DNA of 64,000 nt, taken from NCBI GenBank assembly GCA_018062965.1, contig JAGORG010000004.1:15055-79054 (forward strand), written 5' to 3'. Source of the DNA: Minisyncoccota bacterium. Lineage in GTDB: Bacteria > Patescibacteriota > Minisyncoccia > Phycocordibacterales > UBA5272. Below, piece after piece: positions 7,098 to 60,078 of this stretch. Position 1 is the first letter of the stretch. Every line of letters starts with the position of its first letter. Below the pieces are notes generated by a model, which worked only from the letters and a program-made list of their open reading frames with translations, ran no database searches and was not told the DNA's origin. The translations under genes and the position numbers were made by a program.

Positions 7098-7170
7098 GCC
7101 AAGATAGCTCAGTCGGTAGAGCACTTCCATGGTAAGGAAGAGGTCGCGGGTTCGATTCCCGCTCTTGGCT
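7098..7170 (+). tRNA. tRNA-Thr (anticodon GGT).
   Basis: Cloverleaf traced by hand: acceptor GCCAAGA/TCTTGGC, D-arm GCTC...GAGC, anticodon stem CTTCC/GGAAG with loop AUGGUAA, T-arm GCGGG-TTCGATT-CCCGC. No CCA is encoded. Confidence 0.9.
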
Positions 7171-7308
7171 CACGAAGTGAGCCAAGGCTGTGAGGGGGGG
7201 TCGGGGAAACGGGAGTTTCCCCGTGGCGGAGGAGTCGGAACCGAGGGGTTCCGAAACCGAAGCGAATGATAGTGAGTGCAGGTTGCTCTTGGCTCATGAA
7301 GGAGTAAA

Positions 7309-7336
7309 GAAAAAGCGCGACCATGGTCGCGCTTTT
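7309..7336. terminator. Bidirectional rho-independent terminator hairpin.
   Basis: Perfect palindrome AAAAAGCGCGACC-ATGG-TCGCGCTTTTT flanked by A/T runs. It sits between the tRNA-Thr region and the convergent 7347..9188 gene. Confidence 0.6.
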
Positions 7337-7346
7337 TAGTTGGCTG

Positions 7347-29688: not shown

Positions 29689-31296
29689 ATGAAAGTCATC
29701 GCACTCGTTGGCCCCTACGGTTCTGGTAAAACGGATCTGGGATCCAATACTATCTCTGCGCTCCTTGCGTCTGGATGGGAAACCAACCAGATTGCCTACG
29801 TTTTAAACGACGAAGGTGATTTGCAGACGTCTATACACGACAAAGCCAAAATCCTTCCGATGGTGAATGGCTGTTTCACCTGTTCTGACAACCAGGATTT
29901 ACAAAACATTCTGGACAAACTCGCACAGGAAAAAACCGTCGACCTCGTTTTTCTCGAGGGTTTCGGTGTTGTGTCAGGATATGAGACCACTCAATTCCTG
30001 GAGAGCACAGGGTATGAGTACGAGGTTATAGCCCTCATTGACCACCTTCATTTCAAACAAAACCAAGTGCGCTACGGCGACGTGATGAAATCCCATATTG
30101 CGGTCGCAACCCTTGGTATCTGTATTACCAAATCAGGAGTTGCCACCCTTGAAGATGTCCACCACGACACACTTGTGTATATTGAAGACAACATGGCTCA
30201 ACGGGTGCGAACCATCCTGCTTGACCGCGGTGCGCCGTTTCCGATTGGGCACTTGGTTGATGTGGTCACAGGCGCCGGCAAAGTTCCAAGTTTTTCGTGC
30301 GGTGGTTGTAAGCATTGCCATACTCATGGGGAGGCACATCATCATCACGAACATGAAGAACATGGTCACGCACATGCCGACCATGGGTACATGTACAAAT
30401 ACACGCCTCTGCCAGGAGTTACGCTAGAAGTACTGAAAGCAGCGTTTATGCCTTACATGGAACGCTTTGGTATAACCCGTATCAAGGGCGCAACCCTTGG
30501 GCGAACATTCCACGGTGTCTACGAAACCTGGCAAAACGGATGCGCAAGTGATCAGCGTTTGGTTATCTTTTACAGCGCAAAGCAAGTTGAGATTGAGCGT
30601 GACATGCCTCGACTGTTTGACTGTATCGAGCACTCAACTCCTTCCTCACAAGAAGCTGGTAAGAAAAGTTATGAGTTGATGCGCACCAAGAACGTTTCCA
30701 CCGAAGCAACCCTCGCTGAAATCACAACACTGCTTGGTCAAATACCGAAAACACCGATGGTGGTGAGAGGTACTGACAAAGTTCGAGTCATCACACACCC
30801 TGAACTACTTCAGGTTGTGAAAGAAATCGTCAGGCGACCCTATCCGGAGCTTGAGAAGAACTTCGCAGAAGTCATAATCGTTTGCATGGGTTACTGGACT
30901 GAGTGCGCTGTTTATATCACCGTAAACGAAATGGCGATCGACCAAAACGAGCTTCCGGTAAACCAGCGCGAGCTTGGCGTGTCACTCGCTTGGTGGACAC
31001 ACCGCTTCGGAAAGATGTTTCCAAAAGAACTCACGGAACGAGTGATCCTTCTCAAACCCGGAGAAATGGTTGCGCGCGGGATTCTGGGCGGACTTCTGAG
31101 TCTCAACAGTGATCCTGAGCGTGCCTACTGGCAGTGTGAGGAATATGCTCGTGCTTTTGAGTTTGGTCTTGACCACTGCGAAGATCGCGAGCTCATGATG
31201 CGCGCTGCGCACCATGCACTATCCCTTGTTCCAAATGATCGCAAAGATCTCAAAGAACAATGGGAAAAGCATGTAGCGAATCTGGAAACCAGGTAA
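29689..31296 (+). CDS. G3E-family P-loop GTPase (CobW/COG0523-like putative metallochaperone) with a His-rich segment and a long C-terminal extension.
   Basis: Walker A GPYGSGKT; a CobW-like NDEGD switch; a metal-binding Cys motif (GCFTC); His-rich HCHTHGEAHHHHEHEEHGHAHADHG. At 535 aa it is longer than typical COG0523 proteins. Confidence 0.7.
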   Translation: MKVIALVGPYGSGKTDLGSNTISALLASGWETNQIAYVLNDEGDLQTSIHDKAKILPMVNGCFTCSDNQDLQNILDKLAQEKTVDLVFLEGFGVVSGYETTQFLESTGYEYEVIALIDHLHFKQNQVRYGDVMKSHIAVATLGICITKSGVATLEDVHHDTLVYIEDNMAQRVRTILLDRGAPFPIGHLVDVVTGAGKVPSFSCGGCKHCHTHGEAHHHHEHEEHGHAHADHGYMYKYTPLPGVTLEVLKAAFMPYMERFGITRIKGATLGRTFHGVYETWQNGCASDQRLVIFYSAKQVEIERDMPRLFDCIEHSTPSSQEAGKKSYELMRTKNVSTEATLAEITTLLGQIPKTPMVVRGTDKVRVITHPELLQVVKEIVRRPYPELEKNFAEVIIVCMGYWTECAVYITVNEMAIDQNELPVNQRELGVSLAWWTHRFGKMFPKELTERVILLKPGEMVARGILGGLLSLNSDPERAYWQCEEYARAFEFGLDHCEDRELMMRAAHHALSLVPNDRKDLKEQWEKHVANLETR

Positions 31297-31349
31297 ACAT
31301 CCCTTGGGCACTTCACAACTTTGGTTGTGGAGATGCCCATTTTTATACT

Positions 31350-32165
31350 ATGAATATAGCACAGACACCTTATATAGCACTTCAGAAAAAAATCATAGAA
31401 ATCTATGATGCTCTTTCGTCACACCAAGACCTCACCCCTCGCGAAGAAATAAATAATTTGTTCAGTTCACTTGTTGATATTGTTATTTCTACACCAAAAG
31501 ACCTATCTGCACAGCTGCTATCGACACCAGAAATACAAACTATTCAGCAAGACCTACTTTCTATATGTTCCAAGGGGGAATACGAGCTAGAATTAGCTTA
31601 TGCAAAAAAGATACGAGAAAGCCACGTCCCTTATGAAACTCTTGCAGAGTTTCCATATATTGAAAACTATAAAAACCTAACAGCCATGGAAGTAGAGCAT
31701 CTGCAACCACATACATCAGATGCACATCGTATTCTTTTTATTGGAGGAGGACCATTGCCATTATCTGCAATTCTTATGGCACAGATACACAACATACAGG
31801 TGGACATCTTAGATAAGGACGAGACTGCTTGTAGCGCATCTAAAGACGTACTGCAGGCTCTTGGTTTAGAAGACCAAATACGGGTTATCCATGGAGACAT
31901 ATCACATACAAAAACCTTAGAAACATACACAACTGTTATTCTGGCAGCGCTGGTGGGAGAATCTCAGCAGGAAAAAGATAAGATTCTACAACACATTGCA
32001 GAACATACTCACAAGGGAACATGTCTTATGCTACGCAGTGTGCAAGATCTTGGCAAACTCCTCTATCCTGAGGTTATACTAAACAATGACGCTGTAACTA
32101 TAGTTGATTTTGTCCATCCAAAAAAAGACGTAATCAACCCAATACTTATATGTACAACAAAGTAA
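31350..32165 (+). CDS. Nicotianamine synthase (NAS) family protein, a CntL/NAS-like aminobutyryl transferase.
   Basis: Hand alignment to plant and archaeal NAS. N-terminus LTPREEINNLFSSLVDIVI matches PSEDVNILFKQLVSTCI. ILFIGGGPLPLSAIL matches VAFIGSGPLPLTSIV. VILAALVGESQQEKDKILQHI...CLMLRS...LYPEV...HPKKDVINPIL matches VVFLAALVGMNKEEKVKVIEHL...VLMLRS...LYPIV...HPTDDVINSVV. Confidence 0.8.
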   Translation: MNIAQTPYIALQKKIIEIYDALSSHQDLTPREEINNLFSSLVDIVISTPKDLSAQLLSTPEIQTIQQDLLSICSKGEYELELAYAKKIRESHVPYETLAEFPYIENYKNLTAMEVEHLQPHTSDAHRILFIGGGPLPLSAILMAQIHNIQVDILDKDETACSASKDVLQALGLEDQIRVIHGDISHTKTLETYTTVILAALVGESQQEKDKILQHIAEHTHKGTCLMLRSVQDLGKLLYPEVILNNDAVTIVDFVHPKKDVINPILICTTK

Positions 32166-46143: not shown

Positions 46144-46206
46144 ACTCCAATGGTATCACATGACAATTCACAGACGCACTAATTTGTGATAGTATATTTG
46201 CTACAC

Positions 46207-46290
46207 GCGTCGGTGGTGGAGTGGTCAATCACAACAGACTGTAAATCTGTCGCCCTTCGGGCTTCGCTGGTTCAAATCCAGCCCGGCGCA
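46207..46290 (+). tRNA. tRNA-Tyr (anticodon GTA).
   Basis: Acceptor GCGTCGG/CCGGCGC; anticodon stem ACAGA/TCTGT with loop CUGUAAA; long variable arm GCCCTTCGGGC; T-arm GCTGG-TTCAAAT-CCAGC. Confidence 0.85.
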
Positions 46291-46297
46291 CTGAATT

Positions 46298-46325
46298 CAA
46301 AAAGCACCTTCAGGTGCTTTTTGTG
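46298..46325. terminator. Bidirectional intrinsic terminator.
   Basis: AAAAAGCACCTT-CAG-GTGCTTTTT hairpin flanked by A and T runs. Confidence 0.6.
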
Positions 46326-46466
46326 TGTCTGGTTGGATTTGAACCGCGGGCCGCAACCCGCGAAGAGCGGGTGTAGGTCTCGAGGCAAGCATGCCGAGAG
46401 GCAAATCCAGCCCGGCGCACCAATATAAGCAACTAAAAACACCCTGTACAGGGTGTTTTTAGTTTA

Positions 46467-49163
46467 CTATTTCTTTGCTACAGCTTTTGCTGGAGTGATA
46501 GGACTTGGTATCTTCTTCGGGCGCTTTGCTTCAACAACAATCTCGCCTTTTTTATCGACAGTTACAACAGCACTACTTCCCTTTGCAAACTTTTTAAGGA
46601 GAATAAACTGTGCAACTTTGTTCAAGATATTTGTCTGCATGTATCGCTTGATAGGTCGTGCACCGTAGTGTGGATCAAATGACTTCTCCGCAATCAGGGC
46701 GACCGCTTCATCAGACACTTCTAGAACAATTTCCTTTTGTGCGAGGCGCTTTGCAATGTCTGCCACCTGTAGACGTACAACTTCTTTGATTTCGTCCTTG
46801 ACCAATACATCAAAGATAACAGTATCGTCGAGACGATTCAAAAACTCAGGCTTGAAGTATTCTTTCAGAGCTTCAAGCACTCGCTCTTTGACTTGGACAT
46901 ACTCTTTGCCAACTTCACCGTTTCCAAAACCGATCTGCTCCATTTTTTGAATGTACTGACTACCGATATTTGATGTCATAACAATGATCGTATTTTTGAA
47001 GTTAACCACTCGTCCCTTTGAGTCAGTGAGTCGCCCTTCATCGAGCACTTGGAGTAGCAGGTTAAACACTTCTGGGTGAGCCTTTTCTACTTCATCAAAC
47101 AATATGACAGCATACGGACGATGACGCACTGCTTCTGTGAGCTGTCCTGATTCTTCGTATCCAATATATCCAGGAGGTGAACCAATCAACTTCGATGTTG
47201 AATGTTTCTCCATGTATTCACTCATATCCACCTTGATGAGGGCTTTTTCGTCGTTGAAGATAAATTCAGCGAGAGCTTTGGTGAGCTCTGTTTTACCTAC
47301 ACCAGTAGGACCCAAGAACATAAACGAACCAATTGGTCGCTCTGGATCATTTACTCCAGCACGTGAACGTCTCACCGCATCAGATACTTTTCCAATAGCT
47401 TCACGTTGTCCAATAACTCGTTTGCCGAGCTCTTCTTCCATACGCACCAGCTTCTCCTGCTCTTCTTCAAGCATGCGCGATACAGGAATACCCGTCCAAC
47501 GAGCAACCACTCCTGCAATGTCTTCTTCGGTAATTTCTTCTTTCAAGATTCTGCGTGTCTTTTGTAGTTTGCGAAGCTTTTCGAGATTTGCGTGCAATTC
47601 TTTTGTAAGCTCTGGAATTTGCCCATAACGAATCTCTGCAACACGAGTTAGATCCGCACGAAGCTCTGCATTGTCTGCTTCTGTGCGAAGGGATTCAAGA
47701 GTCTTCTTGATTTCACCTATTTCGTTTAATGTCTTCTTTTCGTTTTGCCACTTCAGTTCAAGCTCGCGAGTTTTTTCTTGCACGTTAGCTATTTCTTCTT
47801 CGATACCTTCAATGCGTTTCTTTGTAGATGTGCCGCTTTCATCTTCTGCAGATACAAGCTCCTTTGTGAGGGCTTCTTTTTCAATTTCAAGACGCATGAT
47901 TCTGCGATGTGCTTCATCTAGTACTGGTGGCTTGTTTTCAAGTGCAATACGAAGAGCAGACGCCGCTTCGTCGATCAAATCGATAGCCTTGTCTGGCAAA
48001 TAGCGAGACGTGATATAGCGTGTCGAAAGATTTACCGCAGATACAAGCGCATCATCTGTGATACGTACACCGTGAAAGAGTTCATATTTTTCTTTGAGAC
48101 CACGCAAAATAGCAAGCGCGTCTTCTTCAGATGGTTCTTCTACAAATACTGGCTGGAAACGTCGAGCAAGTGCTGGATCTTTTTCGATATGCTTTTGATA
48201 CTCCTTCATCGTTGTCGCACCGATTGCTCGGAGTTCTCCTCGAGAAAGCGCAGGTTTGAGCAAGTTTGCAGCATCAGCAGATCCTTCTGCAGCCCCTGCT
48301 CCTACGATAGTGTGAATTTCATCGATGAACAAAATAATACCGCCTTCTGAACGCTCGATTTCTTTCATGATAGCCTTTAGACGCTCTTCGAATTCTCCGC
48401 GAAACTTTGTTCCAGCGATGAGCATACCAAGATCAAGCGAAACGAGTTCTTTGTTTTTCAAACTCTCTGGTACATCTCCCTTTGCCATACGAATAGCGAG
48501 ACCTTCAACAACCGCAGTCTTTCCAGTTCCCGCTTCTCCGATCAAAATCGGATTATTTTTTGTACGACGTGAAAGGATTTGCATCAAGCGCATGATTTCC
48601 ATATCGCGACCAATCACTGGGTCGAGTTTGTCCTGACGAGCAAGATCTGTGAAATTACGTGTGTACTTTGCAAGCGCTTTGTTCTTCTTTGGACCCTGAG
48701 CTTCGGTGATATTGTTTGCACGCAAGTCTTCAAGGATATGCTTTGCTTCGTCTTTATCGATACGAAAACGAGCCAACACTTCTCGTGCAGGACCTGCTGC
48801 TTCAAGAAGCGCCAAGAAAAGGTGCTCTGTTGAGACAAATTCATCCGAAAGACCCTGAGCAACCACCAGAGAATGCTCAAGAACCTGAGCAAGCTCAGGT
48901 GTCAGATACATTTGATATGACGGACTCATCGTAGCCCCAACTGGTGGGACTTCAATAGCATCCGCAACGGTGTCCATGAGAAGTACGAGGTCGACTTCGA
49001 GTTTTTCAAGCATTGCTTGAACAATTGACTCTTCTTGTGTCAGAAGTGCACCGAGCAAATGAAGTGGGTTCACCTGATTCTGCCCTCGCTCAATTGCTAA
49101 CTCGTGTGATTTTCGAATCGCTTCTTTGGCTTTTGTGGTGAAATTATTAAATGCTGGAGGCAT
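46467..49163 (-). CDS. clpB: ATP-dependent chaperone ClpB.
   Basis: Clp_N repeats; two AAA modules with Walker A GEAGTGKT and GPTGVGKT; a middle coiled-coil; 898 aa. Confidence 0.95.
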
Positions 49164-58545: not shown

Positions 58546-58622
58546 TTACCCACGGTTCGGGTCTCATTATAAACTGTAAAAACAAAAACACGGAAAAGCA
58601 TTTCCGTGTTTTTGTTTTCATG

Positions 58623-58707
58623 TGCCCAGGGCGGGACTCGAACCCGCACGCCATTAGATGACAGAAAATTTTAAGTCTTCCGCGGCTACCATTACGCCAC
58701 CCGGGCA
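58623..58707 (-). tRNA. tRNA-Leu (anticodon TAA).
   Basis: Reverse complement gives acceptor GCCCGGG/CCTGGGC, an anticodon loop CUUAAAA and a long variable arm with T-arm GCGGGTTCGAGTCCCGC. Confidence 0.8.
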
Positions 58708-59189
58708 TTATTGTTATTTACCTTTTTATTTCTACCTCTGTGCGTTGACTGCATACTGTGACAGTTAGGACAAAGAATCCTTAGATTTTCTATCCTGTTG
58801 TCTCTATGTTTTCCATTAATATGGTCAAGCTCAACAGGGATTCTACCATCTTCTGTGACTCTCGCCCAGCCACACATTTCACATTTAGGTTTCTTGATAC
58901 CTTCTTTAAAGAGTCTTTGTTTCAATTTAAAACTCTGGAAGTCGCTATTTTCAACTAAAATATCTTTTGTTGCTATAAGTACTTTTCTCGGAATAACTTT
59001 GCCCTTGTTGGATCCTTTACCTAAAAAGTGTTTTATATCAAGATCGTGAATACGAATATATTTCTTAATTTGCTCGTAGTTTCCGCCAGCTTGAACTAAG
59101 TTAAGTTTCTTTAAAACTTGGCGTATACTCGTAGAATTTTTTATAGCCACCTTCAAGCCAGGCAAATCCCACTTTTTTGTTCTTACCAT
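58692..59189 (-). CDS. HNH endonuclease.
   Basis: The HNH core ELDHINGKHRDNRIENLRILCPNCH plus a zinc-finger CEMCGW. Its 3' end overlaps tRNA-Leu(TAA) by about 16 nt. Confidence 0.7.
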   Translation of the reverse strand: MVRTKKWDLPGLKVAIKNSTSIRQVLKKLNLVQAGGNYEQIKKYIRIHDLDIKHFLGKGSNKGKVIPRKVLIATKDILVENSDFQSFKLKQRLFKEGIKKPKCEMCGWARVTEDGRIPVELDHINGKHRDNRIENLRILCPNCHSMQSTHRGRNKKVNNNNARVA

Positions 59190-59229
59190 AATGGTATAGT
59201 AACACAAATAACTATTCTTCTATGTGTAC

Positions 59230-59820
59230 CTATTTCTTTCTATTAACAAAAAAGTGGAGAAGTGCAGCAAACAGTGCGCCACTCGTATCCATCAATATAT
59301 CCTTCTGGGCATCCCAAATATCTCCCTGAGCACCTAGAACTGCAATCCCAGCTTCTGGGTCTGCTGCAAGAGCATACCGCCATTCAAATAGTTCGTATGC
59401 TGCAGCAACAGCCATAATAATAGCTACAGCAGAAAGGTATGCAAACCACTTTTGGTTAACGACTTTGTACTTGATAAGCTCTTCAATAATTGGATATGCA
59501 TACAATCCTACCATTGCATGAGCAACACGGTCGTACATATTTCTTTCAAAGCCAAATAAGTTGTTAAACCAATCAAACGGTACAAGCGCAAATGTATAAT
59601 GTCCGCCAATCGTGTGAAGATAAATAAGAACACTCATCAATACGTATGAAAGTACCGAGAGTCGAATATTTTTTATATAGAGCACCACTAAGAGTACAGC
59701 GATGGGTAGCACTGTCATATTTTCTGTAAACCAAACAGCCCTATCGACTGGATTGATAGCCAAAAATGCAAACTCTACTATATAGATACCTAAGAGAGCG
59801 TGCGGAATGTATTTCTTCAT
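59230..59820 (-). CDS. DUF2238 (YjdF-like) membrane protein.
   Basis: Six TM helices with the YjdF-like pattern (HTIGGHYTFALVPF..., DRVAHAMVG). Confidence 0.65.
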   Translation of the reverse strand: MKKYIPHALLGIYIVEFAFLAINPVDRAVWFTENMTVLPIAVLLVVLYIKNIRLSVLSYVLMSVLIYLHTIGGHYTFALVPFDWFNNLFGFERNMYDRVAHAMVGLYAYPIIEELIKYKVVNQKWFAYLSAVAIIMAVAAAYELFEWRYALAADPEAGIAVLGAQGDIWDAQKDILMDTSGALFAALLHFFVNRKK

Positions 59821-60004
59821 ATAATGAAGTATACAGTACTTTGGAGACGCAGGCGGGAGGTTCGGTCACAAAACTACCTCGCTTCGCTCGAAGCAGTTTC
59901 GCTTGTTCCAAGAACCGAACTTGCTAGTTCGCCTATTCAAGTCCTTACGCAAACAAAGCAGTTGGCTTTTTCCTGCGTCTCAAAAACGCTTCGCTTATTT
60001 TGGG

Positions 60005-60078
60005 AGACGCAGGCGGGAGTCGAACCCGCGAATGGCGGTTTTGCAAACCGCAGCGTTAGGCCACTTCGCCACTGCGTC
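60005..60078 (-). tRNA. tRNA-Cys (anticodon GCA).
   Basis: Reverse complement gives acceptor GACGCAG/CTGCGTC, anticodon stem GCGGT/ACCGC with loop UUGCAAA, and T-arm GCGGGTTCGACTCCCGC. Confidence 0.8.

Follow-up and report, generated by a model that had tools for sequence, protein, structure and literature searches.

The 3' end of a tRNA-Tyr gene recurs downstream of that gene in the window (the whole 64,000-nt stretch of Minisyncoccota DNA that was analyzed), and we conclude, with moderate confidence, that this repeat delimits a 129-bp cassette of the same type as the tRNA-linked repeats (TLRs) of Escherichia coli, which was inserted at the tRNA-Tyr gene's 3' end and is probably expressed by read-through as a stem-closed RNA. 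The anatomy of the cassette is clear, its insertion is polymorphic among relatives, its structure is conserved in the single-stranded form of the tRNA-sense strand, and its architecture is identical to that of the E. coli TLRs.

The 19-mer CAAATCCAGCCCGGCGCAC, which we refer to as X, is present in two exact copies in the window, where the proximal copy forms the end of an intact tRNA-Tyr gene and the distal copy is spaced 129 nt from it (Table 1). The pattern was found in 0 of 100 dinucleotide shuffles when up to three mismatches were tolerated; the repeat is real and non-random, and none is expected by chance. The original prediction had described a 19-nt duplication of the tRNA-Tyr 3' end, and the exact repeat bears this out, although the first copy lies at 46273-46291 and not at 46272-46290. 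The proximal copy reads GCGCA-CTG, and the distal copy reads GCGCA-CCA. Neither ARAGORN nor Rfam (at the gathering threshold and also at E ≤ 10) calls a tRNA at the distal copy, which agrees with the earlier statement that this second copy is not a tRNA; since both are silent there, a second tRNA or tmRNA at this position was rejected. Likewise, no cloverleaf was recognized by ARAGORN or the Rfam tRNA model at 46320-46423, 7172-7301, or 59838-60002.

An assembly duplication, raised at the outset as a reason to discard the repeat, is ruled out because independent assemblies concur. The tRNA-Tyr intergenic region is identical in two assemblies, one from NCBI (L001) and one from ENA (L002), and a further contig (L131), which is 96.5% identical to the window over 4.5 kb, contains the same region with two A-to-G changes in the distal copy. 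The corresponding element at tRNA-Cys (see below) has an identical sequence in two Logan assemblies. In several assemblies of these organisms, contigs terminate within or beside the tRNA-Tyr gene.

The tRNA-Tyr locus consists, in order, of a promoter-like site, the tRNA with X at its end, terminator 1, an inverted copy of X (X'), a core, X followed by CA, terminator 2, and a convergent clpB gene, while msrA lies upstream of the tRNA on the opposite strand. The promoter-like site upstream of the tRNA is the only one on the + strand near the cassette. X' and the distal X can pair at 18 of 19 positions, including three G-U pairs, with one U-C mismatch. On the opposite strand, the G-U pairs would be A-C mismatches; therefore, the helix is expected only on the tRNA-sense strand. 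X' has an alternative pairing with the proximal X, across terminator 1. The sequence between the two copies had been predicted to contain the terminator of the tRNA and a GC-rich segment with a reverse-oriented T-loop-like element, GGATTTGAACC. Both are present (46298-46323 and 46335-46345, respectively), and the latter is part of the X' strand; the inverted copy had been noticed at that stage only as a "reverse T-loop," and the connection to the E. coli TLRs had not been made. Within the core, a possible alternative helix (46346-46351 with 46357-46362) is compatible with all sequences, yet it is not significant. A small open reading frame (ORF) in the cassette (ATG at 46391, 23 codons) was rejected as coding because its ATG is not kept in a related element (L015).

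Table 1. Coordinates of the tRNA-Tyr-linked cassette, its surroundings, and the cassettes linked to tRNA-Thr and tRNA-Cys (positions in the window)
Feature	Position	Strand	Remarks
Promoter-like site of tRNA-Tyr	46167-46195	+	TTCACA, 17 nt, TG-TAGTAT
tRNA-Tyr(GTA), intact gene	46207-46291	+	ARAGORN; Rfam tRNA, 59.3 bits
Proximal direct copy X (Tyr)	46273-46291	+	Spans T-loop position 56 through position 74 of the tRNA; TG comes next, not CCA
Terminator 1	46298-46323	+	Perfect 12-bp hairpin, CAAAAAGCACCT/AGGTGCTTTTTG; T-run extends into X'
X' (Tyr)	46323-46341	+	Inverted copy of X
Type-A core	46342-46401	+	60 nt, two hairpins; predicted to be closed by X':X helix
Hairpin P-a	46356-46372	+	ACCCGC-GAAGA-GCGGGT
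Hairpin P-b	46379-46400	+	CUC-GA-GGCA-AGCA-UGCC-GA-GAG; tandem G-A flanks
Distal direct copy X (Tyr)	46402-46420	+	Followed by CA and CAATATAA flank
Terminator 2	46431-46464		Bidirectional 15-bp hairpin, common to cassette and convergent clpB
clpB	46467-49163	-	Convergent with tRNA-Tyr
tRNA-Thr-linked cassette	7161-7301	+	
Proximal X (Thr)	7161-7177	+	
X' (Thr)	7178-7187	+	TGAGCCAAGG
Distal X (Thr)	7285-7301	+	
tRNA-Cys-linked cassette	59840-60019	-	Type-B core
Proximal X (Cys)	60019-60000	-	
X' (Cys)	59981-59972	-	GAGACGCAGG
Distal X (Cys)	59859-59840	-	Followed by CCA

The claim that the same architecture is found at tRNA-Thr and tRNA-Cys proved correct. The two X copies are identical at 16 of 17 positions at tRNA-Thr (12 exact) and at 19 of 20 positions at tRNA-Cys. 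Each of the three cassettes in the window lies behind its own tRNA, on that gene's strand, and contains the end of that tRNA in inverted form; the length of the cassette, taken as the spacing of the X copies, is 124 to 160 nt (n = 3; Tyr, Thr, and Cys). The layout is absent at the other three tRNAs of the window (two tRNA-Leu and one tRNA-Lys). The Thr core is purine-rich and contains two perfect 8-bp hairpins; this cassette lacks a terminator 1, and a terminator comes after it (at ~7310-7337). The Cys cassette runs on into a DUF2238 gene (59230-59820, minus strand) and offers no more than a weak GCGAAGC-T5 hairpin as a terminator. An exact-protein look-up of the gene neighboring tRNA-Thr, used to find strain variants at this locus, returned no record.

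The X':X helix closes the predicted fold in all three elements, and in all three the folding energy is lower on the tRNA-sense strand: -53.1 versus -37.2 kcal/mol antisense for Tyr (sense z-score, -4.8), -55 versus -49.2 kcal/mol for Thr (sense z-score, -4.4), and -56.9 versus -44.9 kcal/mol for Cys (sense z-score, -4.2). The strand asymmetry is not uniform over the three elements, however, because the z-score of the Thr element against shuffles is stronger for the antisense strand (-6.36) than for the sense strand (-4.43).

The core of the Tyr element, which we refer to as type A, is present in the window, L131, L130, L015, L121, L129, L014, and L034; the type-A alignment comprises only eight sequences. 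RNAalifold on this alignment yielded 22 pairs, 11 of which show double changes. In a 25-pair type-A structure, 90.9% of cells are paired and both sides have changed in 11 of the 25 pairs. The covariation score was matched by 0 of 500 column shuffles, and when the partner was slid by one to three columns as a control, pairing fell to 30 to 47%. Compensatory variants are found in both hairpins (CCCGC/GCGGG, CUUGC/GCAAG, and CCUUU/AAAGG in P-a; GGCA/UGCC, GCGU/ACGC, GUUC/GAAC, and GCUU/AAGC in P-b). Among the pair cells, G-U exceeds A-C by ~19 to 6 in our own tally, which again favors a structure that the tRNA-sense strand forms when single-stranded. Maintenance extends to the closing helix: the two A-to-G changes in X of L131 still pair, as U-G, and L012, whose X and X' have both departed from the tRNA sequence, retains a short GUCUG/CAGAC closing helix in its predicted fold. 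From the type-A alignment we built a covariance model; it recovered all type-A copies (E values of 1e-25 to 1e-36) and weakly matched the Tyr-linked copies with the two other core types described below (B and C); it did not match the Thr and Cys elements of the window. The intervening DNA is a conserved, covarying structure with an inverted tRNA end, not debris.

We scanned one genome per species with the 19-mer and then scanned metagenomes with the plain 19-mer. In the one-genome-per-species scan, ~22 Patescibacteria contigs, labeled as Saccharibacteria, Paceibacterota/Parcubacteria, and Nomurabacteria, contain a tRNA-Tyr gene that is identical or nearly identical to that of the window and whose 3' end is the exact 19-mer; the metagenome scan added further tRNA-Tyr-linked cassettes. 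The clpB genes of these relatives are ~74 to 77% identical to that of the window. In many relatives, the tRNA and a terminator are followed by an element that extends from ...GGATTTGAA (X') to CAAATCC... (X). In addition to the type-A members listed above, there are cores of type B (L012/L110, L013, L019, L036, and L119) and type C (L118, L141, L023, and second copies in L013 and L015). In L013, L027/L118, L034, and L129, cassettes are arranged in series of two or three. For each of the three core types linked to tRNA-Tyr, identity has the same left limit, T-loop position 56.

The site is empty in other relatives (L024, L026, L038, and L030), where it consists of the tRNA, one terminator, and clpB. 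At clpB-adjacent empty sites, CCA and a flank of the CAATA/CAAAT type come after tRNA-Tyr. In the window, CCA and the CAATATAA flank sit on the distal copy and TGAAT follows the proximal copy; TGAAT also opens the terminator 1 region in several other filled sites. That the distal copy bears the CCA and flank of the empty sites indicates that a segment composed of X, terminator 1, X', and the core was inserted in the 3' part of the tRNA. The CCA and short flank thus suggest that the distal copy is the original tRNA end. Our confidence in this assignment is moderate because similarities among the terminators are mixed: L024 has a single terminator that is similar to terminator 1, and the one in L026 is similar to terminator 2. 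We also asked whether the CCA that follows the distal copy is conserved as part of an RNA, but homologues with an exact X lack it and continue instead with AAT, AAA, ATA, or AAG; this idea was rejected, and CCA is better read as ancestral tRNA flank. Cassettes turn over fast: the clpB of L121 is 96% identical to that of the window, yet its cassette is another variant of type A, with a different terminator 1, an additional hairpin module, and X and X' that have diverged.

The Cys element of the window aligns over its entire core with type-B elements that lie behind tRNA-Tyr in other genomes, and the match includes a long hairpin (GCGAAACU..CUUCG-AGCGAAG-CGAGG..AGUUUUGUG). The differences are confined to the outermost strands, which match the local tRNA. 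Because the same core is found behind Cys and Tyr with local closing strands, the core is a transferable module and the helix is host-tRNA specific. These alignments suggest that the cassette belongs to a modular family in Patescibacteria (candidate phyla radiation [CPR]) in which the core is conserved and the closing strands are tRNA specific. The core common to Cys-linked and Tyr-linked elements also largely refutes a different origin, namely, that the cassette is a degenerate tandem tRNA duplicate, a pseudogene that retains only acceptor and T-arm strands. Although X' holds the tRNA 5' acceptor strand in Cys (GACGCAG) and Thr (GCCAAG), and types B and C have a hairpin between the acceptor-like and T-like parts of X' at the place of the anticodon arm, the Tyr X' is the complement of the T-loop and 3' T-stem and not a copy of positions 1 to 7 plus 49 to 55, and the cores are without tRNA similarity. 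We consider a pseudogene highly improbable.

Type-A copies with the exact 19-mer are also found away from tRNA-Tyr (L014 and L015). The L015 element is preceded by a conserved promoter-like or short-RNA-like sequence and a terminator 1, which is identical to the one after tRNA-Tyr in L121 and nearly identical to that in L034. On a Saccharibacteria contig composed of L011 and L014, which one ORF that reads across both loci proves to be contiguous, 5,677 nt separate the tRNA from X'-core-X; genes in this interval encode a radical-SAM enzyme, a class I LysRS, and an aldo-keto reductase.

The original prediction attributed the repeats to small integration events or their remnants at tRNA 3' ends; in the version examined here, a classical integrase island or prophage entered the T-loop of tRNA-Tyr and was then nearly all deleted. 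Direct repeats of the 3' part of a tRNA from the T-loop onward are the classic signature of the attL and attR sites of tRNA-targeting elements, and the cassette shares with such elements a tRNA restored by an element-borne copy, an ancestral flank after the distal copy, and a site that is patchily filled or empty among related genomes. The insertion itself is supported, given the cassette-free relatives and the CCA on the distal copy; its attribution to remnants of an integrase element is not. Integrase or Xer was found in none of the 30 window ORFs searched with Pfam, which include all neighbors of the three cassettes and are housekeeping genes (among them msrA, clpB, RF-2, ATP synthase, mnmA, and trmD), and inspection by eye of the ORF translations from the 5.7-kb L011/L014 interval showed no integrase, nor was one found at the other loci inspected. 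Two scans of IMG/VR gave only chance matches inside coding sequence, and two blastn searches of GenBank phages returned no match to the cassettes; a phage or prophage attP was rejected on these grounds. A metagenome scan with an IUPAC pattern of the junction gave no matches. Furthermore, unlike attL/attR pairs or cis-mobilizable elements that lack an integrase, the cassette has only ~110 bp between the copies, an inverted copy of the site, and a conserved secondary structure. All three window cassettes fall within the narrow length range given above, each with the inverted end of its own tRNA, and the cores are conserved across Patescibacteria classes with compensatory changes, which is unexpected for leftovers of random deletion. 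A decayed island is, in our judgment, an unlikely source of these cassettes.

E. coli TLRs have been known since 1978, and the RtT/rttR repeats of the tyrT locus were reportedly described by Egan and Landy in 1978 and by Rudd in 1999. There are 22 such elements at ten loci of E. coli, defined by an 18- to 19-bp 3' end that is identical to the corresponding end of whichever tRNA or rRNA gene lies upstream (PMC8144298). The elements RrA/B/F, located behind 5S rRNA, bind Hfq and CsrA, whereas the other TLRs are stated to be without known function; RrB is situated between T1 and T2, the terminators of rrnB, and arises when transcription reads through T1 (PMC8144298). The tyrT locus contains 3.14 tandem units, in which we found GGGGAAGGAT, the complement of ATCCTTCCCC inside the repeat. 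The units fold with a GGGGAAGGAT/ATCCTTCCCC closing helix around a multi-hairpin core, and rrB is similar.

The E. coli TLRs (tyrT RtT and rrnB RrB) and the window cassette have the same order of parts, X' included. Like the TLRs, the cassettes lie directly downstream of a tRNA (or an rRNA in E. coli) in the same orientation, their last 18 to 19 nt correspond to the 3' end of the upstream gene (Tyr, 19/19; Cys, 19/20; Thr, 16/17), they can be placed between two terminators (as with rrnB T1 and T2), and they can form tandem arrays. Both groups also have a common short motif, helix-GA-[GC..GC]-GA-helix, which takes the form YUCGAG..CGAGAG in type A and the tyrT units and occurs as a CGAGG variant in type B; TCGAG..CGAGRG has two matches in the window versus 0.16 expected, for a motif that was picked post hoc. 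In contrast to the TLRs, which are ~178 nt long, the units in the window are shorter (124 to 160 nt), the host phylum is Patescibacteria, the tRNA-proximal repeat copy lacks an encoded CCA, one core type is found on different tRNAs, and the structure is backed by covariation.

The cassettes also differ from the TLRs in that they have no detectable sequence or covariance-model homology to them. Rfam contains no family that matches the Tyr, Thr, or Cys elements or their relatives, even at permissive E values; the candidates RtT, YrlA, tmRNA, riboswitches, and ribozymes gave no match, and RtT in particular (RF00391) was not matched by Tyr at E ≤ 10 or by Thr and Cys at E ≤ 1. An nhmmer profile of four tyrT units, run against 1.1 Mb of loci, matched no cassette (best E value of 0.31, off-cassette), and the type-A covariance model did not match L146 and L147 in a test of homology to the E. 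coli family. Because there is no such homology to TLRs or RtT, the kinship is architectural only. By architecture, the window element is a TLR-type cassette that lies outside the E. coli/Rfam RtT sequence family, and it is a CPR counterpart of the E. coli TLRs.

We propose that the cassette arrived by recombination in the segment from the T-loop to the 3' end, which would make the distal copy the original end. Transcription would then start at the tRNA promoter and, for Tyr, pass through terminator 1, as in E. coli RrB; the Thr element has no terminator between the tRNA and the cassette. Expression by terminator read-through is probable, and because terminator 1 looks strong, this read-through may be low. 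The transcript would fold as a stem-closed RNA whose 3' end may be set by the tRNA-type end, as proposed for RrB. Such an RNA would resemble 3'ETS-leuZ, tmRNA, and YrlA (a bacterial Y RNA) in that it derives from or resembles the end of a tRNA transcript and has an acceptor or T-arm closing helix; it differs from them in having no Rfam match, no mimic of a T-arm or D-arm, and a closing helix that is a continuous duplex over the discriminator base. The X':X pairing covers positions 73 to 75, unlike what is expected of an RNase P or RNase Z substrate, and X' is able to pair with the 3' strand of the tRNA itself, which would harm folding of the tRNA. Both of these features fit an origin at the level of DNA better than they fit a tRNA-designed RNA, and the same holds for the border at position 56 and for cargo between the proximal X and X'.

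The main rival to our reading places the function of the fold in DNA. X'-core-X would serve a miniature integrative element as its hairpin attachment site, a single-strand recombination site comparable to CTX attP(+) or integron attC. The inverted half-sites would fold into a duplex that imitates the tRNA's 3' end in double-stranded form, and exchange of one strand followed by replication would yield X, cargo (here terminator 1 only), X', a loop (the core), and X. Like integron attC and CTX-phage attP(+), the cassette has two imperfect inverted half-sites and a variable, structured center of 60 to 100 nt, and structure, rather than sequence, is conserved, on one strand; unlike in these systems, the target would be a tRNA 3' end and not attI or dif. 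This topology fits exactly and includes the inverted copy, which a classical att remnant leaves unexplained. The pairing extends past the tRNA end, as in a mimic of a DNA target, and the conservation of structure on only one strand and the constant left edge of identity in the three Tyr-linked core types are also consistent with such a site, as are the tandem arrays of cassettes and of E. coli tyrT units. In L011 and L014, the cargo between the tRNA-proximal X and X'-core-X would be 5.7 kb of genes. In addition, GCGAAGC, a sequence whose DNA mini-hairpin is very stable, is found at two places in the Cys element and is also present in E. coli TLRs.

Against a folded DNA site, no recombinase was found in the window ORFs scanned, the putative 5.7-kb cargo, with its class I LysRS and aldo-keto reductase, looks housekeeping, and we know of no free or circular form of the cassette and no precedent for folded sites at tRNA genes. 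Covariation of internal hairpins and tandem G-A pairs are equally or more typical of a functional RNA. When folded as a circle, the unit adopts a good rod-like fold, which does not discriminate between the models. We consider a folded single-strand recombination site improbable, though it is the reading that competes most directly with an inserted, read-through-expressed RNA cassette; the decayed island and the pseudogene are less likely. More speculatively, and with low confidence, the TLRs of both E. coli and Patescibacteria might be integrated copies of an unrecognized class of minimal mobile DNA, with units of ~130 to 180 nt. Its only essential part would be the hairpin X'-core-X, which would imitate the duplex 3' end of a tRNA or rRNA gene and be inserted there by recombination of a single strand, as with CTX phage or integron attC sites; retargeting would occur by replacement of the distal half-site, followed by correction of the inverted half-site via quasipalindrome template switching.

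Collectively, a family in Patescibacteria that is architecturally identical to the E. coli TLRs and unrelated to them in sequence suggests a general mechanism rather than an enterobacterial oddity. Compared to the E. coli copies, the CPR family adds numerous divergent members that show compensatory changes, related genomes in which the site is filled or empty, and one core type on different tRNAs. Together, these features make the question of origin, an RNA gene or a mobile DNA site, testable by comparative genomics. For annotation, there is a risk that such cassettes are taken for att remnants or tRNA fragments. If true, the reading of TLRs as minimal mobile DNA would explain a puzzle that has stood since 1978.

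The core of the type-A cassette, the type that follows tRNA-Tyr in the window, contains a segment that can pair in two ways. At window positions 46346-46372, the sequence CCCGCG can pair either with the upstream CGCGGG or with the downstream GCGGG, the latter forming the core hairpin P-a. These alternatives correspond to columns 33-38, 98-100, and 127-129 of the type-A alignment A2, and both pairings are preserved in all eight of its sequences, with the CGCGGG helix maintained mostly through G-U pairs. Some type-A variants carry inserted hairpin modules, and there the insert is closed by the CGCGGG/CCCGCG helix; this helix, which is without statistical significance, may act as a switch or as the closing helix of a multibranch loop. 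One inserted module, GATTAG(T/C)AAATC-GTGCCGTGAGGC, recurs in four variants (L121, L129, L034, and L018) and consists of a hairpin followed by a second hairpin with a GUGA tetraloop. Only part of the type-A cassettes have this module, and that of the window lacks it, which shows that hairpins are gained and lost as modules within the core.

The tRNA-linked repeats (TLRs) of Escherichia coli (the tyrT units and rrB of rrnB) and CPR cassette types A and B have in common a motif composed of a helix, GA, a short GC helix, a loop, GA, and a helix. Its sequence form is TCGAG..CGAGAG, with CGAGG in type B. Repeated GCGAAGC is likewise common to the E. coli TLRs and to both CPR types, and E. coli rrB contains GCGGATTTGAAC, the T-loop-complement string of the inverted copy X' in CPR Tyr cassettes. 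These common motifs and strings may reflect either homology or convergence.

Elsewhere in the window, the Cys cassette is followed by a DUF2238 gene and, directly downstream of it, an open reading frame (ORF) with an HNH endonuclease domain, which overlaps the 5' end of tRNA-Leu(TAA) by ~15 nt, such that its stop codon lies inside the tRNA gene. The same gene pair is found in two Logan contigs (L148 and L149). The window also encodes a putative nicotianamine synthase, which may be an unusual enzyme for a reduced genome of the Patescibacteria type.

Features located in the window and in related contigs
Feature	Location	Strand	Note
171-aa ORF	window 58692-59207	-	HNH endonuclease domain
tRNA-Leu(TAA)	window 58622-58706	-	
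ORF	window 31260-32165	+	strong match to nicotianamine synthase (PF03059), E 4.6e-54
Helix-GA-short GC helix-loop-GA-helix motif	window 46379-46400 and 59880-59900		
Conserved non-coding sequence	L014:3005-3135	-	
Conserved non-coding sequence	L015:672-800	-	
Conserved non-coding sequence	L015:3566-3700	-	
5.7-kb interval, tRNA-Tyr to type-A cassette with exact 19-mer	L011:1-470 + L014:2751-8000		contig CAYOQQ010000013.1

Several independent assemblies break within or at the end of tRNA-Tyr: contigs L003-L006 end inside the gene, and L022/L023 have a contig end at its 3'-terminal 19-mer. CPR assemblies likely fragment at these loci because co-occurring Patescibacteria have an identical tRNA-Tyr but different cassettes. 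One contig has a 5.7-kb interval between tRNA-Tyr and a type-A cassette. Three of its genes are for a radical-SAM enzyme, an aldo-keto reductase, and class I lysyl-tRNA synthetase, and it also contains an ORF of 353 aa and another that is peptidase-like; this interval could be the cargo of a cassette-bounded island or the product of a rearrangement.

At some loci, the position of tRNA-Tyr, ahead of terminator 1 and a cassette of type A or C, is taken by a conserved non-coding sequence. It occurs in L014 and L015, and L141 has a copy downstream of a TLR. It contains AGAT..GGTATATACGGAAT, which resembles an extended -10 promoter, followed by ~55 nt that end in TTCGGTTCTAACTTCCTCGACTAATGCGCAC. 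Neither ARAGORN nor Rfam recognized this sequence. It may represent a previously unrecognized small RNA gene that likewise serves as a host of TLR cassettes.
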